The notes under the pieces are model-generated. The model made no database searches. It was not told the origin of the DNA and saw only the letters and a list, made by a program, of their open reading frames with translations. A stretch of 64,000 nucleotides of DNA from Candidatus Omnitrophota bacterium. GTDB lineage: Bacteria; Omnitrophota; Gorgyraeia; Gygaellales; Profunditerraquicolaceae. Positions 1-36,228 of the stretch are shown here, one piece after another (position 1 is the stretch's first letter; each line of letters opens with the position of its first letter). The position numbers were made by a program, and so were the translations under genes. Where the stretch lies: contig JAQTQC010000005.1 of NCBI GenBank assembly GCA_028712505.1, forward strand, positions 7,051-71,050, written 5' to 3'.

Positions 1-3000
1 GCGCCAAACTAACTAGTTACTATTCTTTTACCACTAAAAAGGCTACCGGGGAAGTTAGGGATCAGAATGCCCAGGTGGCTAAGAATACTATTGTAGCCGG
101 TTCCTTGACAAATCTGTCCGCGACTTCCAGTATAACCGAGGTAAGCGAGAGGATAGAATCCTCTCCGTATTTAACACTCAACTTTACATTGGCGCATCAG
201 CTTCCCATCGGAGGGTATGTCAAGATTAGCTTTGATACTGATTATGTATTCCCAACCGATACATTCTGCGTTACTAATGACTATAACTTGTATAGCGATG
301 ATTCAACCAAGATAATGTATCTGCAGAGAGTGAGTTCTCCTGTGGCAGTAGGGGCAACCAGTATACAACTGGCGAACATCAAGAATCCCGCTTATGTGCA
401 GACAACCGGCAATTTCTCAATAACAACCGAGCTTTCCAGCCATGATCCTATAGACACAGGTTCTGCCGGAGGCATTGGTATTGTTGCCGGTTCATTAACT
501 AACGCATCTGTGGCTCCGGTTTCTGATATTGTTAGCGAATTTACAAGTTATACGGTTAATTTTACCAATGACCATATGATAGCTGCAGGGTCTAAAGTAG
601 CTATTACTTTTGATGCTGATTACGGATTTAAGTTATTAGGTAGGTATGCTTGTGTAGCTTCTTTGGCAGACAGCTCGCTTACACTTATGGATATATCTAA
701 TCCTGCTAGCCCCGTGCTTAAGTCTGAAATTTCTGATGAAGCAGGAGGATTTAACAAGCTTGCAGGAGCAAAGTCGGTTTATGTTTCAGGAAGCTATCTC
801 TATGCAGCTTCATCAATAGATAACTCTTTAACCATCATCGATATCTCGAATCCAGCTAGCCCGGTGCTTAAATCCGAGATTTACGATGAAACAGCGGGAT
901 TTACCAAGCTGGCTGGAGCTCAATCCGTATTTGTCTTGGGCAATTATGCCTATGTTGCTTCTTCAACAGATAATGCTTTAACCATCATCGATATCTCGAA
1001 TCCAGCCAGCCCGGTGCTTAAGGCTGAGATTACCGACGGTTCGGGAGGCTTTACTAAATTAGCCGGAGCAAAATCCGTATTTGTCTCGGGCAATTATGCC
1101 TATGTTGCTTCTTCAACAGATAATGCTTTAACCATCATCGATATCTCGAATCCAGCCAGCCCGGTGCTTAAGGCTGAGATTACCGACGGTTCGGGAGGCT
1201 TTACTAAATTAGCCGGAGCAAAATCCGTATTTGTCTTGGGCAATTATGCCTATGTTGCTTCTTCAACAGATAATGCTTTAACCATCATCGATATCTCGAA
1301 TCCAGCCAGCCCGGTGCTTAAGGCTGAGGTATATGATGGGGATGGGGAGTTTAATAGGCTGGCGGGGATTGAGTCTGTTTATGTCTCGGGCAATTATGCC
1401 TATATTACTTCTTCGACTGATAATTCCTTGACAATCATGGATATCTCGGATCCTGCTAACCCGGTGCTTAAATCCGAGGTATATGATGGGGATGGGGAGT
1501 TTAATAGGCTGGCGGGAGCTTATTCAGTTTACGTTTCCGGAAATTACGCCTTTGTTGTATCTTCTGCAGACAGTTCTTTGACAATAATAGACGTAACAAA
1601 TCCGATGAATCCTGCGCTTAAGTCTGAGGCGTATAATGAAGACGGGCAGTTCAATAAGCTAGGCGCGCCGTTTGCAGTTTTTGTATACGGAAATCAGGTT
1701 GTTCCCGGTAATGCGGGCGCGACTGTTGCTGCCAGCGGCAGCGTATTGAACGTTACCTTAGGTTCTCCTATAGGTGCTAATGAAGCTGTTTCTTTGCAAT
1801 TAGATAATATAAGAAATCCCTATTATGTCCAAACTCCGGATGTCTTCCAGGTGCAGACTAAGAATTCCGCCGGAGGGGTGGTAGATCAGAATCTTTCTGT
1901 AGCATCTGTTCCTGTTACAAAAGGAGCCTTTACCGGGTTAAGCGTTACTGCCGCGGATAGGGAAATCAGTAAGTCTGACAATTACACCTTTACGCTTACC
2001 TATAGTCATCCGGTTCCGAAAGACGGATATCTAAAGATTGAATTTGATTCAGATTATGATTTAAGTTCTGCGTACTTGGTCAGCCCCACTGATAGGTATA
2101 CTTATCTGTGGAGTTCAGGATGGAACTATATAGAACTTAAATTGAAAGAAGGAATCATCGCTGATACCTCTGATACTATTGTTTTAGGTTCGGTGAAGAA
2201 TCCAAGTTTTGTCCAGCAGACCAGCGAGCATCGGTTTACAACATTGAGTACTGATGCCACGGGCAATGCTGTTATCGACCAATCCAATCTTACCGGTTTG
2301 ATCATTATCGGTGGAAAACTTACCGGTGTCTCTGTCAGTGCTGCTAATAATATTGTTACCGAGACTACAAATTACACAATCAACCTGACGACGAAAAACC
2401 CGATGTCTCTTAATCCTTCAATTAAAGTCTCGTTTGATCCGGATTATAACGTATCGGGAGCTGCTTTTGTTTCCGGAACAGTTGACGGAGTGGCAATGGT
2501 TACGCAGAATCCGGCGCTTACTATTGATACTAATAATAATGTAGTAACGCTTAATCTGGCTATGGATATCACTAATTCTACAGCCGCGGTATCTTTCGTT
2601 CTCTCGGGTATTGTTAATCCCGGCTATGAGCAGACAGCGGCGTTTGATATAACCACTCAGTATGGCGGTAACGATATTGATATTACTGATCCGGCTGCTA
2701 AACCTTCAGTAGCAATAGCCGCAGGCACAATAACTTCTGCCAGCGTCACTCCTGCGACAACAGAGGTAAGCGAATCCGGAAATTATGTTTTTAATTTTAC
2801 GTTGCCGCATGCTTTAGCTACAGGAAGTTTCTTAAGGATACAATTCGATCCGGATTATGTTTTAACCAATACGAATTGTCAGACCAGCGGTTACTCTTTA
2901 TCAAAAGGTTTAGATTACATCCTTTTGCAAAGGACGGGTGCGCAGTTAACCGGCGCTCAAAGCCTTACCTTGGGTAATGTGAAGAATCCCAGCTTTGTCC

Positions 3001-6000
3001 AGACCACGAGTAACTTTATTATAAAGACAGAAGATTCGGGGAACAATAAGATTGATGGAGCGGAAGTTTCCGGGGTAACTACGACTACTGGTGCATTGAC
3101 CGGTCTTTCGTTAACCCCGCTTGACTATACTGTGGCCAATACCACTGCTTATAACATAGCCTTTACTACGGATCATGCCATAGTCCAGAATGGCAAAATT
3201 GAGGTAACCTTTGATTCAGACTATGCATTAACCGGAGTCGGTAGCGCAGATGTTTCCGGAAATCCCGGTTCAACTGTCGCGGTAAGCGGAAATAAGCTGA
3301 CTATAACTTTGGGTACTGCGATAGCAGCGGCAACTCCTGTGTCTTTGCAGGTAGCTAACATTGTAAATCCGGTGTATGTGAAGACTACCAATAGTTTTGC
3401 TTTCAGGACTATGGATGCTGCTGCCGGCCTGTTGGATCAGGGTACGGCTTCAGGCGTGACTACAGTAGCCGGTACGTTTACTGCCTCCAGCGTAACTTCT
3501 ACATATTACACTACGGGTAAAACCGATGTCTCATATACCTTTAACTTCACTTATGCGCATAACGTACCTCTGGATGGATTTTTGAGGATAGATTTTGATC
3601 CGGATTATGATGTAGCTTCGGTTGCGGTAGCACATGCCAATTACACAAAACAGGAGGCAGGTGCAAATTATGTAATATTAAAACTGCTTGCGGCTAAACC
3701 AAAAGGTACTGTGGAGTCGATAACGTTAAGTAATATTAAGAATCCCGGTTATGCTCAAACCGTAACTTTCGATATCAAGAGTATGAATACAACCGGTTCA
3801 GTTATCGATACTGTTACTACCCCGTCAATCAACATTGTTCCTGCTGCTTTGACTGCGCTTAGCAGGTCATCTAATACGTATATCGCAACCGAGTCGGCCA
3901 GTTATACAATAGGTTTTACTACGGTTAACGCGATTCCTGCAGGAGGCAAGGTTGAAATTACATTTGATCCCGATTATGTTTTGACTTCTGTAGCCAGTGG
4001 TAATGTTTCGGGAAACAGCGGCTCAACTGTTGCAGTAAGTGGCAACACTTTAATTGTGACTTTGGGAACAAATATCCCGGCTTTGACTGCCTCCAGCCTA
4101 GTCATCTCTAATATCAAGAACCCGGGTGCACAGAGTACGGGAAGCTTCTCTTTGTTGACCAAGAATGTTTCCGGATACAGTATTGATCAGGGTACTGTAT
4201 CAGGAGTGACTATTATTACCGGCTCTTTGAGCGGACTTTCTACTGTCCCTGTTCATACCAAGGTAAGCTATAGTACGAACTACACTTTTGGTTTTACTGT
4301 TGCCCATTCCGTTCCTGTGGGCGGATTTATCAAGATACAATTTGATAGTGAGTATGATCTTTCTTCAGCTTTTGTCGTAGGAGACTATACGATATCCAAA
4401 GTGGATAATTATATATATCTACAAAGAAATGTTTCTGCTTTAAGCGGAGCGGTTACAGTAGAACTGAGGAGCATTAAAAATCCTGCTTATGTCCAGAGTA
4501 CCGATACATTTGTTATAACTACAGAGTTATCCAATCATGATCCCATAGATGTAGGGAGTGCGCCTAGCATAGTTACGACCGCAGGTACTTTAACCGCTAC
4601 AAGCGTTGCGCCGGCGACAACCGTGGTGGCAGAGAATACTGCTTATACATTAAATTTCACTACTGAACATGCGATAGCGGTTGGTGGCAAGGTGGAAATT
4701 ACCTTTGATCCTGATTGTGATCTTTCATTGGTTTTCCCGGGAGATGTTTCGGGAAACAGCGACTCAACAGTAGCGGTTTCAGGCAATAAGTTGATTGTCA
4801 CCCTGGGAGAAGCTTTGGATGCGGGAGTCTCGGAAACATTGGTAATTTCCAATATTAAGAATCCTCCGTATGTAAAAGAGACAAATACCTTCTTTGTACA
4901 AACTAAAAATCCTTCCGGAGGGGTTATCGATGAGGTGACTGCTGCCAGTATAACTACTTCTACAGGAGTTTTGGGCTCTCCTGTTATCACTCCGGCTTCC
5001 CTGGTTTCCGGAGCAACAACATCTTATTCGTTTAAATTTACCCCTGCGCATGCAGTTCCTCTTAACGGCTACCTGAGGATTGATTTTGATTCTAGCTATG
5101 ATTTGGCTAGTCCCGGAGCAGTAGTTATGAGCAGCACAACTGCTTGCGACATCACTCTAAGAGGTGCCGGATACCTTTTAATCAAGTTCTCGTCTTCCGG
5201 TTTAAGCGCCGGAGTGGAACAGACGGTGGGGATAGCCAATGTGGTGAACCCGCCAAATGTTAAGAGCCTGGAGTTTACCCTTACGACCAAAGATGCTTCT
5301 TTATATGATATTGATACTGTGAAAATCTCAGGTATTAGTACTACAGCCGGAAGTTTAAGCAGCTCGTCTTTGACCGCGAACACTTATGTCGTTTCAGAAT
5401 ATGCTACTTATACAGCTGTTTTCACTACAGCTAACCCGATAGCTGTCGGAGGCAAGGTTGAAATAAATTTTGATACTGACTATGTCTTGTCGAGCGTAGA
5501 ATCAACAGGGGTTTCCGGTAATCCCGGCTCAACAGTAGCGGTAAGCGGAAGTAAGCTGGTGGTGGCTATCGGTACAGCCATTGCTAAGAATACCCCGGTT
5601 TCTTTAGCCATAGCCAATATCAAGAACCCTGTTTATGTCCAGGCCACGGATTCATTCTTAATTCAGACTAAGACTGTGGATGATGCGATCATCGATACAG
5701 CGACAGCAACATCTATAAATATAACCGCTGGAGCATTAAGCGGTTTGTCGGTAAGCGCTACATCAAAGAAAATCTCAGATATTACCTCTTATACGTTTAA
5801 TTTTACAGCCCAACATGTTATTCCCGCTGATGGCTTTATAAGAATTCAATTTGACAGTAATTATTTATTGGGTAGTGCTTATCTCGATACAGCCAGCTTT
5901 TATAGCTTGGACAGGGGTAGTGATTACCTGAGGTTTAAGACAGTCGCCCAGATAAATGCCGGACAGGCAGTGAGTATTCCTATAAGCACGATTGCTAACC

Positions 6001-9000
6001 CGTCCTACGTATATACCGTAAGTAACTTCCAGGTAAAGACAATGATTGCAGTTGCGGCAACCCAGCAGATAATGGATTCAGGAGAAATTACAGGTGTTAC
6101 CCTGACTCCTGGCACCTTGTCAGATATTTCCGTAACTGCCGCTTCTGCGGAAGTAAGTGCTTTAACGAATTATACATTTGCATTCAAGACAGAAAACAGT
6201 ATTGCTGCCGGTACTGGTAAGGTGGCAATCAGCCTTGATAGCGATTATGATTTAAGCGCCGTAGAGTCAAATAACGTTTCAGGTAATTCCGGAGCTACGG
6301 TAAGCGTAAGCGGTAATACCCTGAGTATAACTTTAGGTACTGCAATTGCCGCCAAGGAATCTGTTTCCTTGACGGTTTCTAATATCAAGAATCCTTCTTA
6401 TGTACAAACTACAGGTAGTGTAACAATCAGCAGTAAAGTTCAAATAAATTCCGTAGATTATGATAAGGACGGCGGAATCCTTGCTTCAGGCCCGGCAATA
6501 ACTTCAGGAGATTTTACTAATGTATCAATAAGCGCTACTTCTCAGATAGCCGGTGAAGATTCAATTTATACCTTTGGATTTACCCCGGGGCATAATGTGT
6601 CCGCAGGAGGGTTTATCTATATTGGTTTTGAAACGGGTTATGATGTATCCGGGGCTTATCTCACTGGCTCAACCGGTTCAGGCGAATATGCTGTTGCCAG
6701 TTTAACTTCTACTCAGGTAGTTTTGAATGTCACGGCGGCGATAGCTAAAGGGGAGGCCCAGACTATCAGCCTAGGCGGCGTAGTCAACCCGCAATTTGTC
6801 AAGGATGTGATTTGTACGCTTAAGAGTGCTAATGCGTCTTCCGGAATAATCGATGAAAGCGATACGCCATCATTAAGCATAACACCTGCTCCATTGGCTG
6901 TTTTATCTATAAGCGGCGCTTCTTATGTCGCCCAGGATGTTACTTCCTATACGATCGCTTTTACAACTGTTAACCCGATTGATCAAAATGGAGAGGTAGA
7001 AGTTGAGTTTGATGCAGATTATGATTTAAGCGCTGTTCAACCAGGTAATGTCACAGGAAATAGCGGTTCAAGCGTATCCGTAAGCGGTTCTAAACTGATT
7101 ATTAATTTGGGTACTGCGGTTGCTTCAGGAGAGCAGGTTTCATTGGTAGTTTCCAATATCAAGAACCCCGGCGTGCAGACAACCGGTAGTTTTAATCTCG
7201 TAACCAGAAATTCCAGTGGCAATTACCTGGATTACGGTGGGGTTGCCGGAACGGCTATCACCGCTGGTTCACTATCCGGACTTTCAGCAACTCCAGGGAC
7301 TACTGAAATCGACGAAAGCACAAGTTATACATTCAATCTTACGCTTGGCCATAGCGTACCTACCAATGGTTATGTAAGGGTTCAATTTGACAATAACTAT
7401 GTCCTGACCAATGCGACGGTAGTTACCAGCGGTTATTCTTTGACTAAAGGTACTAATTATGTTTTGTTGAAGAGGACCGGTTCGGCGCTCTCTGGTGCGA
7501 TTTCCATCCAATTAAATAGCATAATTAATCCTTCTTATGTGTCCAACACTTTAGCCGGTTTTGCCATTCAGACGCAGCTGTCCAATAACCAGGTTATTGA
7601 TACAGGTACGGCAGGAGCGATCACTACAACCGCAGGTGCCTTGTCTGCTGTAACAGCCGTGCCGGCATCCTTGGGAGTAAGTACTCTTACAAGTTATACC
7701 TTTAACTTTACTACAGACCATGCTATACCCTCCGGCGGTAAGGTTCTTATAACTTTTGATTCCGACTATAATTTAACTTCTGTCCAGGAAGGCAATGTCT
7801 CAGGTGTTGCTGATTCAGTTGTTGCAGTTTCCGGCAATGTGCTCACTGTGACTTTAGGCCAGGCTATTGCCGCAAAAACCTCTGCTTCACTGGTTATTTC
7901 CAATATCAGAAATCCGTCTTACGTCCAGACTACAAACAATTTTGCTTTAGAGAGCAGAAACAGCTCTAATGCCTTGATTGACCAGGGTACAGCTGGCGGA
8001 GTGACTACTGTTACCGGTATTGTCACGATTTCTTCAATCACAGCTTCTACTTATGTTGCCGGTAGTACTAATGCTCAATATACCTTTAATTTTGCGCCGA
8101 CCAATGCGGTTGCCGCCGGCGGATATCTAAGGGTAGATTTTGATGTTACTGATAGCGCGTATAATGCTTCCAGCGCTATTGTTTCAGCAGGCGGCTCTAC
8201 CTTTGTTATCCCGCAGGGAGGGGCTAATAAGAATTATGTCAACCTGACTTTTACTCAGAACGTAGATGCAGGAAGCCCGCTTTCTTTGCAGCTTTCAGGT
8301 ATAGTCAATCCTGTTTACGCCAAGAATGTAACTTTCCGGTTGACTACTAATATCTCAACGGGAGAAAAAATAGATACGTCTGATTATGGTCCGGTAGTAA
8401 TCACTCCGGCTCCTTTGGTCGGGACATCTTTAATAATGGGCAGTACTACAGCTCTGGATATCAGTAGACATACATTTAGTTTCACTACTGTCAACGCTAT
8501 TGACGTTGGAGGTAAGGTTGAGATAACTTTTGATTCCGATTATGTGTTGACCGGGGTAGGCTCGGGTAATGTCTCCGGAAATTCCGGCTCAACTGTTGCA
8601 GTAAGCGGCAGCAAGCTTATTGTGACTTTGGGCACAGCGGTTTCTTCTGCAAGCGAAGTTGTCTTAGCCATCGATAATATCAAGAATCCTGGCGCGCAGA
8701 CAACAGATGCTTATGCTATTGTAACTAAGAATTCCGGAGGTTATCAACTGGATCAAGGTAGTGTTGCAGGTAAAACAATTACCGCTGGCGTTTTGACAGT
8801 TTTATCTGCTGACGCCACTACTTATGAGGTGGCTGAAAGCGCAAATTATACAATTAATTTTACGTTGGCGCATAATATACCGATAAATGGTTATGTAAGG
8901 GTGCAGTTTGATGATAACTATACTCTGACCAATGCGACGGTAGCGACCAGCGGGTATGCCTTGACTGGAACCGGAAGTAATTATCTTTTGCTCCGGACGG

Positions 9001-12000
9001 GTTCCGAACGTTCTGGTGCGATTTCCATCCAATTAAATAGCATAATTAATCCTTCTTATGTGTCCAACACTTTAGCCGGTTTTGCCATTCAGACGCAGCT
9101 GTCCAATAACCAGGTTATTGATACAGGTACGGCAGGAGCGATCACTACAACCGCAGGTGCCTTGTCTGCTGTAACAGCCGTGCCGGCATCCTTGGGAGTA
9201 AGTACTCTTACAAGTTATACCTTTAACTTTACTACAGACCATGCTATACCCTCCGGCGGTAAGGTTCTTATAACTTTTGATTCCGACTATAATTTAACTT
9301 CTGTCCAGGAAGGCAATGTCTCAGGTGTTGCTGATTCAGTTGTTGCAGTTTCCGGCAATGTGCTCACTGTGACTTTAGGCCAGGCTATTGCCGCAAAAAC
9401 CTCTGCTTCACTGGTTATTTCCAATATCAGAAATCCGTCTTACGTCCAGACTACAAACAATTTTGCTTTAGAGAGCAGAAACAGCTCTAATGCCTTGATT
9501 GACCAGGGTACAGCTGGCGGAGTGACTACAACCGCTGGCACCTTAACCAGCGTATCCGGAGCTGCCGTTAACTATGCTGCAGGAGCCGAGACACAGTATA
9601 CCTTTAATTTCATGCCTGCCAATGATGTTGTAACAGGAGGCTATGTAAAGATTGAGTTTAATTCTGAATACAATATTACCGGTGCATATCTGATCAGCCC
9701 TTCAGCTAAGTACAGTATTTCTACTAAAACAAATAATATTATTGTACTGAATGTGCTTGCTGATGCATTAGCTTCTAGCTCCCAGAGCATAAGCATCGGC
9801 GGTATAGTTAACCCGGGCCGTGAGAAAACAGGCATTAAATTTACAGTAACCACGCTTACCTCTAATAGTGCCAATATCGATACTGCTCAATCAGCGGCTA
9901 TAAATATAACCGCAGGTGTATTGACTTCGAGCTCCGCCACAGCCAGCACCTATACAACTTATGATTTAGCGTCTTATACATTTAATTTTACTACTGCCAA
10001 TGCCTTGGATGTGGGCGGTAAGGTCGAGATAACTTTTGATGCGGATTATGATGTGTCGGCAGCGGTATTTACTTACGGGAATGATAATTCTACACTTTCA
10101 GTATCTGGACGGGTGGTTACTATCACCTTGGGCACAGCGATAGCCAAGCAGGAAAGCGTAACTCTGACTATATCTGAAATCCGTAACCCGGGAGTCCAAT
10201 CTACAGACAGCTATGCGATAGTTACTAAGGATTCCAGCGCGACAAGAGTAGATACTGGTACGATCTCCGGTAAGGTAATTACCGGAGGCGGAATGAGCGC
10301 TACTTCCGTGACTGCCGGTTCAACTCAGCCGGCTGTTACTACAAATTATACATTTGCCTTTACACCTGACCATATAATTCCTACCGGTGGATATATCAGG
10401 GTTACTTTTGATTCGGATTATGTCTTAGACTATGTTTCTGTGCAGACAGCAGGTTATGCCGCCAGCACCGGACCGGGATACGTGCTTTTAACTAATACCA
10501 GCGGAGGTAATCTGTCTGGTGCGCGCAGTATAGTATTGCTCAATGTCAAGAATCCTGCTTCTGTTAAGGAGCCGACAGGTAATTTCTACATTACAACTAT
10601 GACATCGAATCAGGATACTATAGATACTGCTACTCTTACCGGCATCACTATGACTCCTAGCCCGATAACAGTTTCATCTATTTCAACGGTTTCAGCCGAA
10701 GTCTCGGCGCTTACTTCTTATACCGTCAAGATTACTCCGATACATACTATCCCGATAGGCGGCAAGGTCTTGATCACCTTCGATAGTGATTATAACTTGT
10801 CAAATATCGGTTCCGGAGATGTGTTAGGTAATAGTTCTACTGCCTCTGTAAGCGGTAATATCTTGAGCGTTACCCTGGGCGAGATGGCTTCTCAGGGGAA
10901 TGTGCTTACTTTGGTAATCTCGGATGTGCAGAATCCGTCATATGTGCAGACAACCGGCGTATTCTCAGTAGTGACTAAGGATGCCTCGGGGTATAAATTG
11001 GATTCCGGAGATATAGCTGGTATTTCCATAACTGAAGGCCAGTTGACCAATCTCTCGGCAACTCCGGCAAATACTACTTTGGATACCATAACTAGTTATT
11101 TATTCCAGTTTACTCCGGAGCATACCATACCCTTAAACGGTTATGTCAAGATAACCTTTGATTCTGATTTTGATTTAACCGGTGCTTATAGCGGAACTGG
11201 CAGCTATTCTATTGTCTCTTTGGAGAGCGGTTATATCTTGCTTAAAGCTTTAGCTGAGAAGTCCACTGCTCAAAGCCTGCAGATCCTGAATGTTAAGAAC
11301 CCGTCATATGTCCAGACTACAGACGCTTTTTCAATTACTACACAGGATGCCAACCAAAAGAATATAGACGTGGGTAATGCCTCCGGTATTACTACTACAG
11401 CAGGTGTCCTTTCCGCAGGTTCAGTTAGCCAGACTTCCACGCAGGCAGGTACTACTACGAGTTATACCTTTAACTTTACTACGATCCATGCAGTTGCCGC
11501 CGGAGGCAAGGTTGAAATAACCTTTGATTCGGATTATATCCTGACTTCCGTAACCGCTTATAATGTCTCCGGGATCGCCAATTCCACGGTCGCGGTAAGC
11601 GGAAATAAACTAATCGTTACTACGGGAACAGCAGTTTCCGCCGGGGCTCAAGTTGCGTTGACAATCAGCAATATCAAGAATCCGGCTTATGTGCAGACAA
11701 CTTCCGCTTTTGCAATAGATACTAAGAATGTTTCCGGAGGCTTGTTGGATAGCGGGACCATTCCTGGCATAAACATTACCGCTGGTTCGTTATCGTCGGT
11801 TTCAGCTACGCCGGTTTCTACCGAGGCAGCCAAAAGCACGGATTACACGTTTAACTTTACCACTGAACATAGTTTACCCGCAGATGGGTATGTGCAGATA
11901 GAGTTTGATCCAGCTTATGATTTATCTACTTCTGTAGTCTTGACATCGGGATATGCATTGGTAACCCGGGGCAGCAATTACCTGAAGTTGCAGACTTCTG

Positions 12001-15000
12001 AGATAAGGAGTGGTTCTATCAGTATAGTGTTGAGGAACATAGTCAATCCTCCTTATGTGGCAACGAGTTCAGCCTTTACCGTAATCACGCAGACATCCAC
12101 AGGGGATACCGTTGATATGGGTACTTGCAGCGGTATCACGACTACGCCTGCTGCTTTAACCAGCGCATCTGCGAGCGCTGCTTTGACTGAGGTCAGCAGC
12201 CAGGGTGACTACACCTTTATTGTTACTCCTCAGCATGATATACCTATAGGAGGCAGGATCAGGATAACCTTTGATAATGATTATACTCTCACTAATGTAG
12301 TTTCAGGTAATGTTGCCTGCAGCGGAGGTAATGCCACAGTATCAGTTAGCTCCAAGACCTTAATTATAACATTAGGCTATGAGTTGGTCGGCGGAACAGA
12401 AGAGAGTATAGTTATATCTAATATCAAGAATCCGTCTTTTGCGCAAACCACAAATAATTTTACTATAGTAACAAGGGATGATCAGGACAGGACGATCGAT
12501 CAGGGCGCAGCCAGCGGTGTGGTTATAACTGCCGGGGCGTTGACCGCGATATCTGTAACCGCTGATTCCCTTGTGGCAGGTTATACTTCAGTTTATACCT
12601 TTAACTTTACTCCTGCTCATGCCGTTAATTCCGGAGGTTATGTTGTAATAGATTTTGATTCTGCTTATAATGCGGCATCAGGTTATGTGGTTAGCCCTTT
12701 GAGCACATTCAGCTTATCTTCCAGGTCAGCCAATAGAATAACCCTTAGTGCATTAGAAACTTTGCCGGCTGCTACGGCCCAAAGTGTTACCATCGGCAGT
12801 ATAGTCAACCCGGGTTCCGTAAAACAGGTTACCTTTACTATTAGTACTCAGAATTCTACCCAGAATAATATAGATACGGCTGTTTCTCCGGCTATCAGTA
12901 CACAGGCAGCTCCGATGACGGCTGTTTCGGTAAACGCTGTAAGCAAGATTGCTTTAGACTCGACCTCATACACCTTTGTTTTTACTACCGTCAACTCAAT
13001 AGAGGCCGGAGGTAAGATCGAATTTACCTTTGATTCTGAATATGACCTTACGCAGGCCACATATGCTTCTGGTCTGATCGGTGGCTCAACTGCATTGGGA
13101 GCGACATTGGCTGTAAGCGGCAGTAAATTGATTTTGACTACTACTACCGCAATCAGTACGCAAGCAGGGGTTTCAGTGGTTTTTGCAAATATCAAGAACC
13201 CGGGTGTGCAGACAGTAGATAATTTTGCTATTCTTACGAGAAACTTAAACAATAATGAACTTGATCAGGGTACTGCAACAGGTGTTGCTATAACCGCAGG
13301 TTCCTTGACCGGTTTATCAGTGACTGCCGGTTCAACCGAGATAGGCGCCACTTCAACTTATAGTTTTGGTTTTACAGTAGCTCATACTGTGCCGGTGAAC
13401 GGATATGTGAAGATATCTTTTGATAGCGATTATTCATTCGCCAACGCCAATGTCTTAAGCGAGGCTTATGTAATAACCGATAAACAAAGCAACTTTATCC
13501 TCTTAAGAAGGAGCGCGCAGCTTATCGGGGCAAACACCCTGCAGTTAGGTAATATAGTAAATCCGTCTTATGTTCAGGCTACTGACCCCTTTGTTATTAC
13601 CACCCAGCTTAGTGATAATAAAATAATAGATACAGGAACTACACTGAGCGTAAATATTACTCCTGGTTCCCTGACCCAGTTGTCTGCAAGTGCGGTTAAT
13701 CCGTTAATCAGCGCAGTAAGTTCTTATAGTTTTAGTTTCAAGACTACTCATGCCGTAGAAGCTGGCGGCAAGGTAGTAATTACATTTGATGATGATTACG
13801 ATTTGAGCCTGGTTTCTATAGGTTCTCAGGATATTTCAGGCAGCGGTACTCCAGCGATTGAGTCAAAAGAAGGCAAGAAGCTGAATATCGTTCTTTCTAC
13901 AGGTGTATCAGCTTCTGCGACTGTTTCTTTAAGTATCTCTAATATTACGAACCCCAGATATGTGCAGACTACGTCCTCTTTTGTATTCCAGACTAGAACT
14001 GTTTCAGGAGCAGCTATAGATGAAGGATTGTCCGGCGGCATAACAACTACTGCCGGTACATTAACCGGTATTAATATAGCTTCAGGTAGTGCGATAGCAG
14101 GTGCCAGGACAGATTATACCTTTACTTTTACTCCTGCCCACAGCGTAGAGGCTAATGGTTATTTGAGGATTGACCTGAACTCTCAGTATAATGCAGGCAT
14201 ATCTTATGTGATGAGCCCTACAGCGCTATTTGAAATATCTGATAAAGCTGCTAACTATATTACAGTTAAGGCCCTGTCCGCATTGACCGCTGGGACATCT
14301 TATTCTGTAAGGTTGGGTAATATTGATAACCCCGGGCGTTCAATGGACGTTACATTTACTTTGACTACCAAGACTGCTTCCAGCGCTAATATAGATACAG
14401 GTATTAGTTCAAGCATGCATATCACGCCTGCTCCGATGCAGTCAGCATCCATTTCTTCAAGCAGCTTGATTGCTACGGAGACAGCTACTTATACCTTGAA
14501 TTTTGTGCCGGTAAATACAATAGATGATGGCGGTAGGGTTGAAATTACCTTTGATTCTGATTATGTGCTTACCGGAGTAAATAGTGTTACTGGTTTTGAT
14601 GCCAGCATAGCGGTTTCTGGCAGTGTCCTGATTATTACTTTGAATACCCAGCTGGAAGCAGGGGAAGCCTGTTCTTTTATCATCCCGAATATCAAGAATC
14701 CGGGAGCCCAGACTACCGATGCATTTTCTTTGGTTACTAAGGATTCTACCGGTACCTCTTTGGACGAGGGGACCATAGCCAGCAAGGTTATCCAGGCTGG
14801 CGCATTAGGCAGTCTTTCTGTTTCTGCTGATTCTTACGAGGTAATGGGTACAAGCGAGAGCGCTACCTATACTTTTAATTTTACCTGTGTCCATGCAATC
14901 CCTGCTAACGGCTACATCAGGATAGGTTTTGATACGGATTACTCTTTGGATAATGTAGTCAATTTAAGCTCCGGATATCTGATATCTTCTAAAGGGGCAG

Positions 15001-18000
15001 GATATCTGTTGATCAGGACTACTCAGGAACGCAGTGGAGCCTGTTCCATACAGCTAAGTGGAATAAGGAACCCTTCTTATGTGCAGACAACCGATAATTT
15101 CACAATCGCTACGCAATTAGCTACGCAGCAAAATATTGATACCGGAACTATCGGAGGTATTACTACTACGACCGGCTCTTTAACCGGACTTACGGTATCT
15201 ACGACTAATTCTAAGATTGCTGAATCAGCTGTCTATACTTTTAATTTTACAGCAGACCATGCTGTTGCAGTAGGGGGTAAGGTAGCTATAACCTTTGATG
15301 CTGATTATGACCTGACAGCGGTTACTTCTACCAGTGTTTCCGGTAATTCCGGTTCGACCGTATCGGTCAGCGGTCATGACCTGATAATTACCTTAGGCGA
15401 GCAGATCTTTGCTGCAGGTAACGTGTCTCTGGCTGTATCCAATATAGTTAATCCGGCATATGTCCAGACTTCGGATGCCTTTGTTATTAAGACCAAGAAT
15501 CCTGAAGACGGTTTAATCGATACTGGCAATGCATCCGGGGTGACGCTTGAACCTGGCGTATTGGGCAATGTAAACGTCAGTTCAAACGATTTGCAGGTTA
15601 ATGCCCAATCAATCTATACCTTTGTTTTTACTCCTGCGCATCCAATTCCTGCCAACGGGTATATTAAAATAGACTTGGATAATGACTATGATATAAGCGG
15701 GGCATATCTTTATCTGGTATCAGGCTATTCTTTTGAGAAAAATACGAGCGATGTGTATTTTACATTACAGGCAAATAGCGCTAAACCCGCAGGTACTCCT
15801 TTAACGATATCGATAGCCGGTATTATTAACCCGCCATACAGTCAGACCACGGATAGTTTTATGATTAATACCCAAGCAGCCAATCAAAGCGGTATTGATT
15901 CTGGCTTAGCCAACGGTGTGGAGATTACTGCCGGCCAGCTTTCAGGTGTTTCTGTGGTTTCTGCCGGAAATAACTATGTAGTTGGAAATCAGGTAAATTA
16001 CACTGTAGCCTTTACTACTGTTAATCCTATAGGAGTAGGAGGCCAGGTTAAAGTTACTTTTGACGCAGATTATGGTTTTGCTTTAAATGGCGCTGTATCG
16101 GGTAATGCGGGAGCTACAGCTGCGGTAAATGCGAACGTGGTTACTGTAACTTTAGGTACTGCGGTTGCGGCTAATCAGGCAGTCAGTTTGACCTTGGGCA
16201 CTTTTACTAACCCAGGATATGTGCAAAAAACAGATGAGTTTTTGATCAAGACATTTGATTCGGCGGGATACGCCCTGGATTCAGGCAAGACATTGGGCAA
16301 GGATATAACTACAGGCGCCCTTACCTCTTTAAGCGTAAATTCAAGTTCAGCCAGCGTGCTTAACGCAGATACAAAATTGACCTTTAGTTTTAATGCCCCG
16401 CATGTGATTCCGCTTGATGGTTTCATTAAAATTAACTTAGATAGTGATTATAGCGTGGTGTCGCCTTATATCAAGAGTTCCAGCGGAGCCAGCCTGACTT
16501 TGCTTACGGAGGCTGGAAGCCAGGCCGGATATCTTTTATTTAAACTAAATTCTGCGGCTTCCGGGGCAATAAGCGTGGAAGTCGGAGGTATTACCAATCC
16601 CTCTTATGAGCAGACTACCCAGAATTTTGTGATTACTACCATGTACACCGGAGAAGAAGGTATCGACACCGGTACTATTCCGGGCCTGGTAGTTAATTCC
16701 GGATCCTTGGTCATCAGTTCTGTGGCCTGTTTGGATAATTACGCCGGCGCCACCACGACATATACTGTTAATTTTGCCGCGGTTCATGCTATCGCGGTCA
16801 CGAGTAAGATCGAAATTGTTTTCGATAGTAATTATAATTTAGCCGGTGCCGAATTGAGCAGCCCATCCGGGAGTTTAACTGTTTCAGGAAGTACTTTGAG
16901 CATATCCTTAGAGGCAGAAGCAGCAGCTTCTTCCAATGTAAGTTTGAATATAGCCGGTATAGTCAATCCGGGTTATTCTCAGACAACTGATAACTTCAAG
17001 GTTACAATTAAGGATGTTGGTGGGAATACCGTAGATAAGGGTGAAGGTTCGGGTATTGCTATATTGCCGGCTAGGATAGAGTTTATCACTCCTGCTGCCG
17101 GAGATATTTATTCTGTCGGAGACAGCAAGATCATTAAATGGCAGGTGACCGGAGGTGATATCTCCCGGACCAGCAGCCATTGGTCAGTGCAGTTTGCCTC
17201 GGATACTAATTTCACTTCGCCGATAACCGTACATGAAGGCCTGGCAAGTGTTGATGCAAATAGTAACCTGTATTTTACGTTATCCGTGGATGTGAGTATG
17301 CTTTCAGAGAATGCTTATCTGCGGGTGACTTGTATCGATAATTCATATACGGATGTTACGACAACTTCCGGAAGATTCAGCATAAGGCCGGTTGCCGGGT
17401 TCATAGGCTATATTTCTCCGGCGTCTTCATCCGCGAAATGGGCTATTGGAAGCAGCAGTACGATAGAATGGTCTACGCAAGGGGCGACGAGCAATAATTT
17501 TAAGATTGAATATTTTGCCAAGAATATCTGGACAACTATTTATGAAGAAGGGGTTACTGGTTCAGCGCTGGTTATCAAGAGTGCCGGAGACCATTGGTAT
17601 GAGGATAAGTGGTCCTATAGTTGGGCCATACCTGAAGCAGCTAACTTGCCCGATACCGGCGTGCAGGTCAGGGTTACTAATATAGATAATAATATAATTA
17701 CCGGCACTACCGAGGCCTTCGAGATAGCTACTGCTTATATAGAAATCACCAGCCCGGCAGAAGGGTCTACTTGGGTAAGGAATGAAACTAATAATATCAC
17801 TTGGGAAGGGCAGGGTGAGTCGGGTACTAATTTCAGCATTCAGTATGTTGATTCAACCAATGCGGTTACCGTAGATATCTATAGCGGGACAATAGAAAGA
17901 ACGCTTTCCGAGGGTAAATGGCTGTACAGTTATTCCTGGTTGGTAGGCATAGACCTTGAACCTACGGACACGGCAGTAATAACGATAACTAACCTGGATA

Positions 18001-21000
18001 ACAACAAAATCGTTGATACTTCTTCTGTATTTAGCGTTAATGCCAGCGGTAAGCTGGAGATAACCGCTCCAGTAGAAGGCGGCAGATGGGTTGCCGGAGC
18101 CAGATATACGATAAAATGGAATTCCGAGGGACAGGCGCTCAGTTCATCTTCTTTAAGGATAACCTATACTGCGGATGGTATCAGCGAAACCTTGATCACC
18201 AACTCTACTTCCAATACCGGAAGCAAGGATTTTACCTGCCCATCGACTACGTTAAATAATGTAAAGATTCGTCTTCGTCAGATAAACGGGGATGTTACTG
18301 CTGAGTCCGGAGCTTTCAATATCGTGGCTGTTCCTTCTCTCCAGTTTGTCTCTCCGGCTGCCAACGACAACTGGGTTGCCTCATTCACCAAGGAGATAAA
18401 ATGGAGCGGAGTTGGGGAAGGGCTTACCAAGGACCTGGTGATCAAATACTCAACCGACGGCGGCTCAACCTACGCTAATACAATTTTTAACTATACCACC
18501 GATTCTTTTGATGAAAAGATTTCAGCCGTAACTACAGGTACAGTTACCAATTATACATTATCATGGGTTGTGCCAGTTAATTACAGCAGCAATGTGAAGA
18601 TAAAGATCGAAGATATGGGGATAATGCGTCTAGTTAGCGGAAGTTATACTCCTTTAAGTCTGGTCAGCGGTAAATTCTCCATAACTGCCCCTCTGGCGAC
18701 TATTGTCCAGCCAGCAGGAGGAGAAGAGTGGATATCCGGTACCGAGCATGATATCATCTGGTCGGAAACAGGTTCTTTGGGTAAAGATATCAAGATAAGT
18801 TATTCTGTTGACGGTGGCGCAACCTACCCTTATGTTATTTTCCAGAATTCTTCCGGCGATTCCACGGTGTATGCTAATTATATAACTGTTGCGGATAATT
18901 TATTCAGCTATAAATGGGTGGTTCCGAATACTATTTCCGCCCAATGCCGTATCAAGGTAGAGGGTCTGTCAAATAGCGGAAACGGAACTTCCCTGGCTAA
19001 TTTCTCGATCAAGCTGCCATCTATTACGATAACGTCTCCTGTAGCTACAGATTTGTGGGCAATCTATGATAGCTCTCGGATAATCACTTGGAATACCGTT
19101 GGTAATGTCAGCGAGCATTTAAAGATAGAATATTTCAAAGATGAATCTACTTCCAAGGTCATATTGGAGGATACTAATGGTCCGATGACTTCTTATAGCT
19201 GGGATGTAACCGAGGATTTCATAGATTATGTTTCGCCAAGCGGCTGGATAAAGATTACGGATTTAAATTCTGAGTCTACCTTTGCTCAGAAGGTTACTGC
19301 TGTATCGGAGCAGTTTGAATTGTCTCTGCCAGGATTTGATATCGATGTCCCGGCGGTTCCCTTGATCACGGGAAGTTCTTATACTATAACCTGGCAGGGT
19401 GTTGGTGCTTATTCTGCTTGCAGCAGCGAATCGGGTAATACTGTACGTTTAGAGTATGGCGTCGGGGATAATCCTACCTGGGTTACTATTGCCACATCTA
19501 CGCAGAATGATGGTTCATATGAAAACTGGACGGTACCCGACAGGCATTCCAGCGATGTCAAATTCAGGATCACGAATAACAGGTATTCCTTTATTTCTAC
19601 TGTCTCCAGCGCCTTCAAGATCATGGGGTCATTCTCGGTTACCAGCCCAGCTGCCGCAACCAAGCTTTTTGTGGGCAAGGAACAGATGATCGAATGGAGC
19701 ACTAACGGTACGATTAATAAAGTAAATCTTTATTATTCGAAGAATGGCGGCTCAACCTGGACTACCCTGGCTTCTAACACTACTAATAACGGATTCTATG
19801 TCTGGATAATACCCGACGCGGTACTCATCGACCGTTCGCCTAATCCGAACATCTATTTCAAGATAGAAGACGCTACCGATGCAGCAGTTTATGCCAGCAG
19901 GCAGCTTACGATAAGTTATTATAAGGTTACTTGGAATGTTATCGATGCCGATGGCTTGGTAGGTGATTTGGACGGCTTAAGCGTAAATACCCTTGATGTT
20001 AGCAATGATAACGCGGTATGGGAAGATAGGACAGGTTTGAGCTGTTCTGCTTCCATCCGGAACGCTGGTATTGATGCCGATGATATAGTGCTCTATTATT
20101 ACCCCGGCCATCTTTATCAGACTACCTGGTCAAGAGACGCTTATCTGGATGCTACTGTCCAGCCTTCGCCGTGGACAGCAGATGCCGACGGTAAAGAATT
20201 TACCGTAACCTTGGCTACTATGCTGGTGACGAAAACAAGGACTGTGTATTCTTCTGTGACATATGATGCTTCGGCAGATACCTTAAGTATACAGTGTTGG
20301 CTGCAGGAAGAGGAAAAGTTATTGACTGAGATAGCCGGGTTGCAGGGGGCACTGGTAATTATTTATGATGATGAGGATAACGAGATTAAGACTTTTGAAT
20401 ACACGGCTGCGCAAGCAGATGCCAGCGGTGTCTTCTGGACAAAATGGGTTAATCCCGGCTTGCAAAGAAATAAGTCTTATTTTGCCCGTTTTAGGATCCA
20501 GTTCGAAGGAGCATTCCATTACGGCGGTAAGACATTTGAGATAAGTTCAGCTTCACAGATCGACGATATTGCCGAATCGGTAAGTGCCGGAGTCGTTGCT
20601 ATCACATCGGCAATTGCCGAAAGCTCTCAGGAGATAAAAGAAAAAATAGAAGAGACAGCAACCGAGACGCAAACTAAGGTGGCTCAGGCTGTCAGTACAG
20701 CTCAGGCATCGATAGAGGGCACGGTTACGGTTATCGGTGAGGAAAATAAGGCTGCGATCGGTAGCGCTTCAGCGGCGATAAGAGAAAAAGTCGGGAAAGA
20801 ATCCTCCAGCCGTATATTAAACGGAGAGGCTTTTATTAAATCAGGGAATAAATTAAAGATTCGCTATCAGACTGATTCCAAGTTAGCTCCGGAAATAGAT
20901 GTATATGATCCTAAAAATATTCAGCGTATAACTAAAGGCGTAATGACAGAGGTTGGAGATACGGGTGTTTATGAATATGAGGTCAATTTCTTGAGTGGCT

Positions 21001-24444: not shown

Positions 24445-25203
24445 ATGCTGGTATGGCAGATAATCCTTATACAGATCGCTACTTTTACTTTGATTGTTTT
24501 ATTCCTCCGTTGGCTGCTTTACAGCCACATTAGCCGCGCTTTAGACCGCCTGCAAAGATTGAATCAGCAAAACCTGGAAAAAGAAAAAGTGCTCAAGGAA
24601 GAGTTTGAGCGGGCAAGGAAACAGGCAGAGGTTGAGATCCAGCAGGGTAAGCTTGAGGCTGAGAATATAAAAGAGCAAGCTAAGGAAGAAGGTGAGAAGA
24701 CCAGGAGGAACCTGCTTGAGACATCTAAAGAAGAAGCTAAGCGTATTGTTAGCGAGGGGATGAGGGATAGCCAGAGAAAGTACAATGATTTGCTTTTGGA
24801 TATGCAGGATAAGGCGGTGTATCTGGCAGCGGATATCGTAAAATATATTTTTACAGAGAGGATCCGTAAGGTGTTGCATGAGCAAGTAATCGATGAATTG
24901 ATCGATGATGTTTCCGGCTTGGATAAAGAAAAAATACGTGCTCAGGGAGATAAGGCGGAAATCGTCTGCGCTTATTCGCTTGGGGAAGCGCAAAAGCAGA
25001 GATTGCAGCAAGCCTTATCTAATAAGCTAGAACGTAATATTATTATTGAAGAGACGATTGACCCGGAGATTGTCGGGGGTCTGATTATACGCTTAAGCGG
25101 ATTTGTGGTTATTGACGGTAGTATTAGGAATAAGTTCAAGAGGATAGTTCCGATAATGAAGGATAGGGCCAGAGAAGGCATTGGGCAAACAGGGAAGGGC
25201 TGA
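24445..25203 (+). CDS. atpFH: F-type ATP synthase subunit b fused to subunit delta (b-delta fusion)
   Basis: N-terminal TM helix plus b-like LRWLLYSHISRALDRLQRL and a long charged coiled coil. The C-terminus (IIIEETIDPEIVGGLIIRLSGFVVIDGSIRNKFKRI) matches the delta/OSCP C-terminal consensus. Confidence 0.7.
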   Translation: MLVWQIILIQIATFTLIVLFLRWLLYSHISRALDRLQRLNQQNLEKEKVLKEEFERARKQAEVEIQQGKLEAENIKEQAKEEGEKTRRNLLETSKEEAKRIVSEGMRDSQRKYNDLLLDMQDKAVYLAADIVKYIFTERIRKVLHEQVIDELIDDVSGLDKEKIRAQGDKAEIVCAYSLGEAQKQRLQQALSNKLERNIIIEETIDPEIVGGLIIRLSGFVVIDGSIRNKFKRIVPIMKDRAREGIGQTGKG

Positions 25204-26669
25204 TGCAGGAGATTAATTTAAAACCATTAGAAATAAAGGATGTCGGCACAGTCAGGGAGATCAAGGGCGGTGTCATAAAAATAGACGGGCTTGCTTCTTG
25301 CGTGAACGGACAATTGATTGAGCTTGCCCCTGGTCTGATGGGGATGGTTATTGGTTTTACCAAGAAGGACGTCTTGGTCTTAGTGCTTGGCGATGAGAAT
25401 AAGGTGCATATCGGCGATACTGTTTACGGAGAGGAAGGTGTTTTTGAGGTTCCTGTAGGCAGTAACTTTCTTGGCCGGGTGGTCAATACCTTTGGCCAGC
25501 CTCTAGACGGTAAAGGTAAGATCGAGGGTGTGGATACTTATCCGATATTTCGCAATGCTCCCGGGGTGTTGGACAGAGCCCCTATTCTCGAACCTTTTCT
25601 TACTGGAACCAAGATTATCGACACGTGTATACCTTTAGGAAAAGGGCAAAGGGAGCTTATCCTTGGGGACAGGGTTACTGGCAAGACTACCCTGGTTATC
25701 GATGCAATCATCAACCAGAAGGGTAAAGACGTAATTTGCATATATTGCTGGATAGGCGGTAGTCAATCTTCGTTTTTAAAAATCATGGAGCAGTTAAGGC
25801 TAAGCGGAGCTATGGAATGGACTATTGTGGTTACGGCATCCGCTTCAGCTTCTCCCGCAGAGCAATATCTGGTTCCTTATGCAGCTGCTGCCCTGGGTGA
25901 GTATTTTATGGATCATGGCCGGGATGTCTTTTGTGCCTTTGATAATTTAAGCCGGCATGCCTGGATTTATCGCGAGATCTCCCTGCTTTTAGAGAGAAGC
26001 CCGGGTAGAGAGGCTTATCCCGGAGATATGTTTTACACCCATTCACAGCTGATGGAGAGGGCGGGTAAGTTGAATGAAGAAAAAGGCTCAGGTTCAATGA
26101 CATTCCTGCCGATTGTAGAAACCCAGGAAGGTGATATTACCGGACTCATCCAATCCAACCTTGTTTCTATAACTGACGGCCAGATTTATTTAAGCGCCTC
26201 TCTTTTTAATGAAGGTTTTAAGCCGGCTATTGATTTAGGGCTTTCGGTTTCGCGTATCGGAAGCAAGGTACAGTGTGATGCGATAAAGAAGGTAAGCCGT
26301 TCACTAAAAAGAGAATTTGCCCTGGCTAAAGAATTAGCCGCGCTTACTACCATTCGAACCAAATTGTCCGCTGATATCGAACTTAGGCTTAAGCGGGGAC
26401 AGGCTCTGAAAGATTTGCTTATGCAGGATAAGTCAAAGCCTCTTTGCGTAGAGGAGATGATTGTTCTTTTTTACGCATTTAATAAAGACCTGCCTGAGAT
26501 CTTGGAGGAGTCGCAAAGAGAAAACTTTAAGCAGAACATATTCGCTTATTTGCTCAGAGAACATCCGGAATTAGTCGAAGAACTTACTATCCAAAAGCTT
26601 CTTACCGGAGGAATTGAAAGAGGTTTGGATAAGGCGTTTGAGGAATTTTTTGCCGCGGCAAACAATTAA
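25203..26669 (+). CDS. atpA: F-type ATP synthase alpha subunit
   Basis: GDRVTGKTTLVIDAIINQKG Walker A in alpha context, plus the typical alpha C-terminal helical region. Start overlaps the atpFH stop (TGATG). Confidence 0.85.
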   Translation: MQEINLKPLEIKDVGTVREIKGGVIKIDGLASCVNGQLIELAPGLMGMVIGFTKKDVLVLVLGDENKVHIGDTVYGEEGVFEVPVGSNFLGRVVNTFGQPLDGKGKIEGVDTYPIFRNAPGVLDRAPILEPFLTGTKIIDTCIPLGKGQRELILGDRVTGKTTLVIDAIINQKGKDVICIYCWIGGSQSSFLKIMEQLRLSGAMEWTIVVTASASASPAEQYLVPYAAAALGEYFMDHGRDVFCAFDNLSRHAWIYREISLLLERSPGREAYPGDMFYTHSQLMERAGKLNEEKGSGSMTFLPIVETQEGDITGLIQSNLVSITDGQIYLSASLFNEGFKPAIDLGLSVSRIGSKVQCDAIKKVSRSLKREFALAKELAALTTIRTKLSADIELRLKRGQALKDLLMQDKSKPLCVEEMIVLFYAFNKDLPEILEESQRENFKQNIFAYLLREHPELVEELTIQKLLTGGIERGLDKAFEEFFAAANN

Positions 26670-26685
26670 GTTTTAAGGAGTAAAA

Positions 26686-27576
26686 ATGATTCCATTAGTC
26701 GTATTACGCAAGGATTTGGCGTTTAATAAGGTAATGGAAAGCATCATTGAGGTGTTAAAGGGCGTCGCTGCCACTGAGTATTTTCATCTTCAGGGTAAAA
26801 GAAGGAGTTTTGATGAGTTTGAGGGTTATTTAAGAGACCTGTTTGCCCAGGTAGATGTCGGTGATTTCAAACATCCGTTCTTGAACTCTGAGCCTTCTGC
26901 GAAAAATATTGTCTTAATAACTTCCGATTCCGGTTTTCTCGGGGAGCTTAATATGTCGGTAGTAAATTATGGTTTAAGCCAATATCAGAGTGGCGATTTA
27001 CTGACGGTTGTGGGCAAAGAAGGAACAAGATATATCAGCGAGGATGATTATAAGTACACAAGTTTTCCGGGTATTGACGATGATATTTCTTATAGCGGGG
27101 TAATCAGATTAAGAGATCATATCATAAAGGAATTCTTTAGTAAAAAGCTGAGCGGCACGGTTATAGTCTATCCGCATTTTGTTTCTTTTTCTGTGCAGAA
27201 GATAGAACAGTTTCAGTTGTTCCCTTGCAGGTTTTTATTCCCCCAGGAATCCGGTGTCCCGGGTGACAGTAAGGCAAAGTTCTGGGAGTCCGGAACCGAT
27301 GAAAAGATAATCCTGGACTCATCATTAAAAACAACGGTGGAATATTTAGTCAGGATTTGGATCGGTCAGTTAATTAATCTTATATATTGGGAAAGTAAGC
27401 TTTCTGAATGGGCAGCGCGGGTGATGCATCTGGAAAGAAGTACCAATGAACTTAGGAACCAGCAGAAGAAGATGCGTTTACAGTATTTCCGCACTATGCA
27501 CGAGCGAAGTGATAAAAATACCCGGGAAATCTTTGTCAGCCGTATGGCTTTGATCAAGACCGGGGCTGTATCTTAA
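26686..27576 (+). CDS. atpG: F-type ATP synthase gamma subunit (divergent)
   Basis: Position between alpha and beta, size 296 aa, gamma-like N- and C-terminal helices. Assignment rests mainly on synteny. Confidence 0.6.
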
Positions 27577-27590
27577 GAAAGAGGAGCTTT

Positions 27591-30748: not shown

Positions 30749-30752
30749 GCAG

Positions 30753-30992
30753 ATGTTCAAGGTTTCGGTGCTGGACATAAAGACCGCTTCATCTATATTC
30801 CAGGAGTTGGTTTCTCAGGTTGTGCTGCCTGGTGAGGAGGGGGAGTTGTCGATTATGGATTTTCATCAGCCGATTATCTCCTGTCTTAAGGATGGGTTAA
30901 TCCGGATAGATAATACCCCGCCTATATTTATTAAAAGCGGGATTGCCAGTATGCAAGATAATGAGCTAGTGGTATTGGTGGAGAAAAAATAA
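30753..30992 (+). CDS. atpC: F-type ATP synthase epsilon subunit, beta-sandwich N-terminal domain only (79 aa, no C-terminal helical domain)
   Basis: VVLPGEEGELSIMDFHQPIISCLKDGLIRI and FIKSGIASMQDNELVVLVE align with the epsilon NTD (E. coli [28 protein letters not shown]). RBS GAGGAG upstream. Sits 4 nt after the gspE stop and 1 nt before gspF. Confidence 0.7.
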   Translation: MFKVSVLDIKTASSIFQELVSQVVLPGEEGELSIMDFHQPIISCLKDGLIRIDNTPPIFIKSGIASMQDNELVVLVEKK

Positions 30993-30993
30993 T

Positions 30994-32226: not shown

Positions 32227-32241
32227 TTAAGGGGGATTCAA

Positions 32242-33707: not shown

Positions 33708-33714
33708 GGTATTT

Positions 33715-36226: not shown

Positions 36227-36228
36227 AT

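Follow-up and report, generated by a model that had tools for sequence, protein, structure and literature searches.

Recurrent gene conversion as the probable source of two identical segments in a giant gene of an uncultured Omnitrophota bacterium

Gene conversion between paralogous genes for bacterial surface proteins is well documented. The outer-surface paralogues omp2a and omp2b of Brucella reportedly evolve in concert through gene conversion, and the same is said of paralogous outer-membrane protein genes in Helicobacter pylori. Here we describe two 518-bp segments, identical to the last nucleotide, that lie 1 kb apart within a single giant open reading frame (ORF) of a Candidatus Omnitrophota bacterium. 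The ORF opens a 64,000-nucleotide (nt) stretch of contig JAQTQC010000005.1 (assembly GCA_028712505.1, positions 7,051 to 71,050 of the forward strand), hereafter called the window. The identity of the two segments, which we call core copies, very probably reflects very recent intragenic (ectopic) gene conversion between two old paralogous parts of a gene for a surface protein. As in the Brucella and H. pylori cases, sequence appears to be transferred non-reciprocally within a genome, the copies group by genome, their flanks group by orthology and the tracts are mosaic. Unlike in those cases, the partners are two segments of one gene of an uncultured Omnitrophota lineage rather than separate genes, and a link to antigenic variation is not evident here.

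Two further groups of described proteins come close to this one. In Periscope Proteins, repeats of high identity drive intragenic recombination, and strains differ in how many of the adjacent, highly identical repeats make up the stalk (Whelan et al. 2021, PMC8201768). The protein described here is likewise a long surface protein with tandem immunoglobulin (Ig)-like domains. However, it contains one non-adjacent identical pair among approximately 42 modules, the rest of which share about 45% DNA identity, and no difference in module number was seen at this site among six loci that represent different species (synonymous divergence, dS, at least 0.6). Giant genes have also been found beside clusters resembling the type II secretion system (T2SS) in Omnitrophota (West-Roberts et al. 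2023, bioRxiv 10.1101/2023.11.21.568195). Our gene comes from the same phylum, is very long and repetitive, has a predicted extracellular product and lies near a T2SS-like cluster, although the cluster is downstream of it here and usually precedes the giant gene in that study. The Archaeovorin type is marked by HEAT, TPR and secA-DEAD domains and the Dockerin type by dockerin and TSP3 repeats. Neither Archaeovorin (HEAT, secA-DEAD) nor Dockerin-type domains were detected by Pfam in three sections of the part of the gene that lies in the window. Nucleotide-level repeats in Omnitrophota giant genes are generally 'dissolved', according to a 2026 preprint (10.64898/2026.06.07.730766); the core pair is a local exception to this decay, kept by conversion.

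Two identical segments in an array of diverged modules

Direct comparison of the two core copies (Table 1) gave 0 mismatches over 518 nt, bearing out the exact duplicate that the initial annotation had reported. The copies are offset by 1521 nt, or 507 codons; both begin at codon position 1 and are read in frame, and they encode the same 172 amino acids (aa). The core pair is the longest exact run at this offset, and no other exact repeat anywhere in the window is as long. The next-longest repeats (149, 107 and 91 nt) all fall within a 150-nt tandem array at 826–1516. Outside the core pair and this array, which encodes LVIVD repeats, no exact repeat in the 64 kb exceeds 23 nt. The longest repeat expected by chance in a sequence of this length is about 15–16 nt, and chance cannot be the source of a repeat of 518 nt.

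We mapped the modules by an iterative profile search of the giant protein against itself. The search returned 43 module matches of around 120–128 aa each, giving approximately 42 modules (numbered m1, m2 and so on) in the giant ORF. They follow the order A-B-A-C, with a four-module super-period of about 507 aa, equal to 1521 nt. Pairs of modules share a median DNA identity of 45% (5th–95th percentile, 40–55%; maximum, 63%) and a median protein identity of 33%, and A-type modules share 46–63% DNA identity among themselves. The earlier estimate that the other modules are 40–60% identical therefore holds at the DNA level.

The identical segment had also been described as a module, a label that does not fit its extent. 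It takes in the last 55 aa of a B-type module, then the linker, and around 115 of the 125 aa of the following A-type module. Copy 1 starts in the middle of m16, in the strand AISIQLNSI (residue 65 of a 247-residue structural model), and ends about 10 residues short of the end of m17; copy 2 is placed within m20–m21 exactly as copy 1 is within m16–m17. The two edges differ. To the left (7300–7490), the copies are 60–83% identical, or approximately 70% at the nucleotide level overall, with position-specific insertions and deletions (indels), and this flank (7299–7490) lies outside the current conversion tract. The right edge is abrupt, with identity between the copies falling to about 35% at the start of m18 and m22; across all six genomes examined below, right-flank identity between the copies is 27–47%. 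This abrupt end of the tract is the domain boundary at the start of m18.

Table 1. Coordinates of the features in the window. Amino acid positions are numbered from nt 75.
Feature	Position	Strand	Content	Basis
Giant ORF, >7,388 codons, 5'-truncated by the window	3..22169	+	~42 Ig-like modules, LVIVD β-propeller, C-terminal transmembrane helix	
Left flank of copy 1	7299..7490	+	N-terminal half of m16; older paralogue of 8820–9011	Identity, flank tree
Core copy 1	7491..8008	+	aa 2473–2645; last three strands of B-type m16, linker, nearly all of A-type m17	Exact match, module map, predicted two-domain β-sandwich model
Right flank of copy 1	8009..8100	+	Start of m18; position-specific sequence	Flank identity, right-flank tree
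Spacer, unique, 1,003 bp	8009..9011	+	C-type m18, A-type m19, N-terminal half of m20	Collinear and orthologous with L010, L001, L002, L004 and L011
Core copy 2	9012..9529	+	aa 2980–3152; end of m20, linker, nearly all of m21	Exact match, module map
T2SS/type IV pilus-like cluster	29021–36762		T2SS E, F, I, J and K (GspE/F; pseudopilins I/J/K) and PilM/N/O homologues	Pfam

The two-copy layout in six orthologous loci

Scanning genome and metagenome collections with a 753-aa query (m16–m21), we found collinear counterparts of the window at five loci, each in an independent Omnitrophota assembly (L010, L001, L002, L004 and L011). Their protein identity to the query is 68–90% over the best-matching segment. 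All of these relatives are Omnitrophota metagenome-assembled genomes, some of which were labelled Planctomycetales by their depositors; the closest, L010 (JGI Ga0074195), shares 85.6% nucleotide identity with the window over 18.7 kb. In every one of the six loci, the two core copies are separated by a spacer of about 1 kb and enclosed by a left flank before copy 1 and a right flank after copy 2, and the number and order of modules around the site are equal in all six. The spacer shows ordinary divergence between the window and L010, with a proportion of synonymous differences (pS) of 0.46 and of non-synonymous differences (pN) of 0.05. The two-copy layout is older than the split of the six species.

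The likeness of the two copies within a genome, measured over the equivalent of 7491–8008, covers a wide range. Besides those of the window, the copies of L002 are 100% identical; there the exact repeat measures 530 bp, starting 18 nt further left and sharing the right edge. In L004 they are 93% identical, with 37 mismatches in three short clusters and exact stretches of 281 and 85 bp. Identity drops to 82% in L010, which retains exact islands of 60 and 80 nt; to 81% in L011, where the right half is 90–100% identical; and to 77% in L001, which lacks large exact patches. Between genomes, the core is only 63–82% identical. The same is seen at synonymous sites, where pS between the copies of one genome is 0, 0, 0.12, 0.42, 0.44 and 0.66 in the six genomes (the window copies having no synonymous differences), compared with 0.51–0.85 between genomes. 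Within genomes, pN is 0.19–0.29 in the left flank versus 0–0.10 in the core. A two-codon (6-nt) deletion is common to both copies of L002, and the protein alignment contains further lineage-specific states common to both copies of a genome.

Neighbour-joining trees with bootstrap were built separately for the core and for each flank. In the core tree, the copies pair by genome in the window, L002, L004 and L011 (bootstrap 100), and the copies of L010 and the window together form a clade (bootstrap 100). By contrast, the right-flank tree places the copy-1 and copy-2 positions in separate clades (bootstrap 86 and 100), and the left-flank tree groups sequences mostly by position. Flank motifs tell the two positions apart in all six genomes: GYSLTK-G..LLKRTGSAL and VTGIITISSITAS mark copy 1, and GYALTGTG..LL-RTGSER and TAGTLTSVSGAAV mark copy 2. 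Core grouped by genome, flanks grouped by position, mosaic tracts and shared changes together point to repeated conversion acting on an ancestral paralogous pair. Within-genome likeness that exceeds between-genome likeness, orthologous flanks, patchy tracts and shared derived changes are the hallmarks of concerted evolution, and all of them were found. Several lineages have homogenized the core repeatedly and independently of one another, and the flanks have not been homogenized. Of the origins that the initial annotation had considered, recent gene conversion is thus upheld by the ancestral layout and the opposite groupings of core and flanks. Its further suggestion, that such events could generate variation in exposed modules, is not what we see, as the effect here is the homogenization of two segments and not their diversification.

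The motifs also hint at the direction of transfer. In the right part of the core, both copies of the window carry AKTSASLVIS, which is the copy-2 motif in L010 and L001 (copy 1 there reads AKA.VSLA.S), suggesting a transfer from copy 2 to copy 1. At the left edge of L002 copy 2, the copy-1 motif SAL stands in place of SER or SQR, which suggests a transfer in the opposite direction, from copy 1 to copy 2.

Comparison of the window with L010 showed that the core (pN 0.06–0.07, pS 0.51–0.57) lies within the range found along the gene, being neither unusually conserved nor unusually fast relative to its surroundings. A conserved DNA or RNA element was considered and rejected, as the synonymous sites of the core show no conservation between species. 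When the more distant loci L003, L005–L009 and L012–L014 (43–53% identity) were screened for a homogenized pair, no module pair above 58% amino acid identity was found; homogenization is confined to the clade of six orthologues. In a search for strain-level variants, the 753-aa region as query yielded only two short fragments of 55–59% identity, and a neighbouring 258-aa gene as query yielded only a 1.7-kb contig from ERZ27247097.

Two local features of the orthologues deserve mention. The mismatches in L004 include dense clusters of 14 in 23 nt (around 10474–10496 and 11998–12020) and of 11 in 16 nt (10582–10597 and 12106–12121). In L001, the reading frame shifts at 7225–7240 (corresponding to about 12330 in the window), at eight consecutive G (GCGGGGGGGGATGCG); the window reads GCGGAGGTAATGCC there. 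Sequencing or assembly may have introduced a homopolymer error, or the run may be a slipped-strand on/off site in the giant gene of that genome.

Gene conversion and its alternatives

In this very probable course of events, homologous recombination repeatedly overwrites one segment with the other while leaving the layout unchanged. The core then evolves in concert within each genome, and the flanks evolve independently. The ends of the tract coincide with the loss of homology, on the right at the unrelated next module and on the left at the patch with position-specific indels; tract ends of this kind are what recombination-limited conversion predicts. Identity would moreover reinforce itself, in that identical DNA recombines easily and the island would persist, and where conversion lapses, as in L001, the copies drift apart at synonymous sites. 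RecA-type recombination has a general role in bacterial gene conversion, and sequence divergence affects its efficiency. The machinery here is presumably RecA-type homologous recombination or template switching, and we infer a near-neutral process that arises as a by-product and not as an adaptation. The locus adds a well-supported case, from a gene family that has been little studied, to a process already described, and involves no new mechanism.

Several observations weigh against this interpretation or qualify it. No recombination machinery was found in the window, and no recA is present there. Within near-identical repeats, short-read assemblers can pop bubbles caused by single-nucleotide polymorphisms (SNPs), which turns an identity of 99% into an apparent 100%; the window copies could have lost a few true SNPs in this way, and the '100%' could stand for at least 99%. 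Only long reads could confirm how many 1521-bp units the source genome holds. L001 shows that conversion is not obligatory. Last, the divergent patches of L004 have no donor within the 22 kb of that locus, where the best match is 22 of 35 nt; conversion may have passed these patches over, or a module beyond the locus may have supplied them.

The exact repeat had initially been flagged as a possible assembly error, with one segment wrongly duplicated or pasted and a true genome that holds one copy or two clearly different ones. We consider this very unlikely, even though a 518-bp exact repeat exceeds short reads and k-mers and obliges the assembler to resolve a graph loop. A 100-N gap in the nearby LVIVD array of L002 likewise shows that repeats of the giant gene trouble assemblers; it indicates that short-read assemblers break on that array, yet they carried the 530-bp pair through. 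L010 (82%) and L001 (77%) share the architecture with copies so diverged that there is no assembly ambiguity, and in the independent assemblies L002 and L004, the same place holds copies that match exactly or nearly so, each pair with its own species-specific sequence. The mosaic intermediates in L004, L010 and L011 are not something an assembler can produce, orthology across all six loci extends to the spacer and to the context of both junctions, and the copy identities form a graded series. The sole artefact still plausible is that a few real SNPs distinguishing near-identical copies were collapsed. A fresh segmental duplication that added a new copy in the source genome, the other origin proposed at the outset, is more improbable still. 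It would account for the perfect identity and for an offset of whole codons and of one four-module super-repeat. However, module count and order are equal in the six loci, each copy is flanked by sequence orthologous to that at the same position in the other loci and the 1-kb spacer is conserved in all six genomes. The spacer modules are also not duplicated, with protein identities of 34% between m18 and m22 and 48% between m19 and m23. Had the 1521-nt unit been duplicated in tandem, these pairs would be identical too, and duplication is therefore rejected.

Selection might instead keep the copies identical, for example as two equal domain units for bivalent binding, or the pair might serve as an in-frame length switch of 507 aa, or four modules, similar to that of Periscope Proteins. 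Such a role is unlikely in our view. The hot spot does persist at the same pair, one of approximately 42 modules, with similar boundaries across species that are near synonymous saturation; the offset is in frame; and identical domains would be tolerated when they are not neighbours (see the argument from misfolding in PMC8201768). Against this, the six orthologues have equal module numbers and no length variant was seen at the site, conservation of the core between species does not exceed that of its surroundings and self-reinforcing homology accounts for the persistence. In L001, the copies have drifted to a pS of 0.66, near saturation, and a pN of 0.086, giving a ratio of non-synonymous to synonymous divergence (dN/dS) of about 0.06, much as elsewhere in the gene (0.07–0.1), and special selection for identity is thus not required. 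We accordingly see little chance that the pair is a maintained feature, whether a fibre needs two equivalent units or 518-bp direct repeats switch four modules (507 aa) in and out within populations. Diversity-generating retroelements (DGRs) are common in uncultured lineages of small cells, and the dense local clusters of mismatches between otherwise identical L004 copies might recall such templated mutagenesis, in which one copy serves as the template and the other as the variable repeat. It is nevertheless scarcely conceivable here. No reverse transcriptase was found among the window ORFs scanned against Pfam, and the mismatches in L004, L010, L011 and L001 are of all substitution types, mostly third-position transitions, without adenine specificity. 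Both copies are internal coding segments and, at around 520 bp, far longer than DGR repeats.

The giant gene and its product

From the window's first in-frame codon onwards, the giant ORF contains no stop codon until 22169, and the window cuts off its 5' end. The start listed for it, a GTG at 75, is not the true start of the gene, which extends upstream. In the L010 orthologue, the frame stays open for at least 2.7 kb further upstream. Over the whole gene, the window and L010 differ with a dS of 0.63 and a dN/dS of about 0.09, and the gene is under purifying selection, with dN/dS of around 0.07–0.1. Such low ratios indicate that the giant ORF is a real, functional coding sequence.

Pfam scans covered three sections of the giant ORF within the window, the 5' end of the gene lying outside it, and matched only LVIVD and, weakly, DUF2808 and Kre9_KNH. 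The C-terminal 1,700 aa contain the weak Kre9/KNH-like Ig matches, a coiled-coil-like region and a C-terminal hydrophobic helix. The protein is predicted to be membrane-anchored and extracellular. For the modules, Pfam offered no firm family beyond the weak DUF2808 match, and their fold was instead taken from structure prediction. An AlphaFold model of m16–m17, for which 19 other module pairs of the giant gene served as the alignment, comprises two β-sandwich domains (mean predicted local distance difference test score, 95). Its best Foldseek matches are integrin alpha leg domains, MSCRAMM adhesins and cohesins, at 8–16% sequence identity and with low TM-scores because the domain orientations differ. 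The module pair would thereby resemble the Ig-like stalks of fibrillar adhesins in folding as two β-sandwich domains, but it differs from them in its low sequence identities and TM-scores, and no adhesive tip domain or ligand was identified.

Module 2 is split by the insertion of seven LVIVD repeats, which form a β-propeller. At the DNA level, these are encoded by a tandem array at 690–1665 of about 6.5 units of 150 nt, corresponding to propeller blades. Adjacent units are nearly identical, with exact runs of up to 149 nt; 938–1086 equals 1088–1236, and 922–1028 equals 1222–1328. Long exact repeats at an offset of 150 nt occur likewise in L002, L003, L004, L005 and L010, and the 100-N scaffold gap of L002 lies inside the array (3896–3995 of that locus). 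Besides the core pair, the LVIVD array seems to be another part of the giant gene that evolves in concert.

Implications for giant genes

What sets this locus apart is a single non-adjacent pair in a diverged array, out of register with the domain boundaries, and the fact that the giant protein belongs to an uncultured phylum. DNA identity has fallen to about 45% for nearly all modules, and one non-adjacent pair is still in the conversion cycle across several species. The locus thereby offers a comparatively dated case of recombination shaping the very long, repetitive surface proteins of Omnitrophota. With copy identities from 100% down to 77%, the six loci also provide a natural series in which to study the decay of conversion tracts. 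For assembly and annotation, the lesson is that an internal repeat may be long and exact without being an error; the identical segments being real biology, the model of the giant gene can be trusted.

Genomic surroundings

Downstream of the giant gene lie a gene for an MA-type peptidase-like protein, a response-regulator diguanylate cyclase gene, F-type ATP synthase genes and the T2SS/type IV pilus-like cluster, which follows the giant gene at a distance of 7 kb. A second GspE-like ATPase is encoded at 61742–63397. The ATP synthase genes occupy 24445–29000, after the giant gene and the diguanylate cyclase response regulator, and comprise an ORF resembling a b/delta fusion followed by alpha, gamma and beta. 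A 252-aa ORF combines ATP-synt_B and OSCP matches within one protein.

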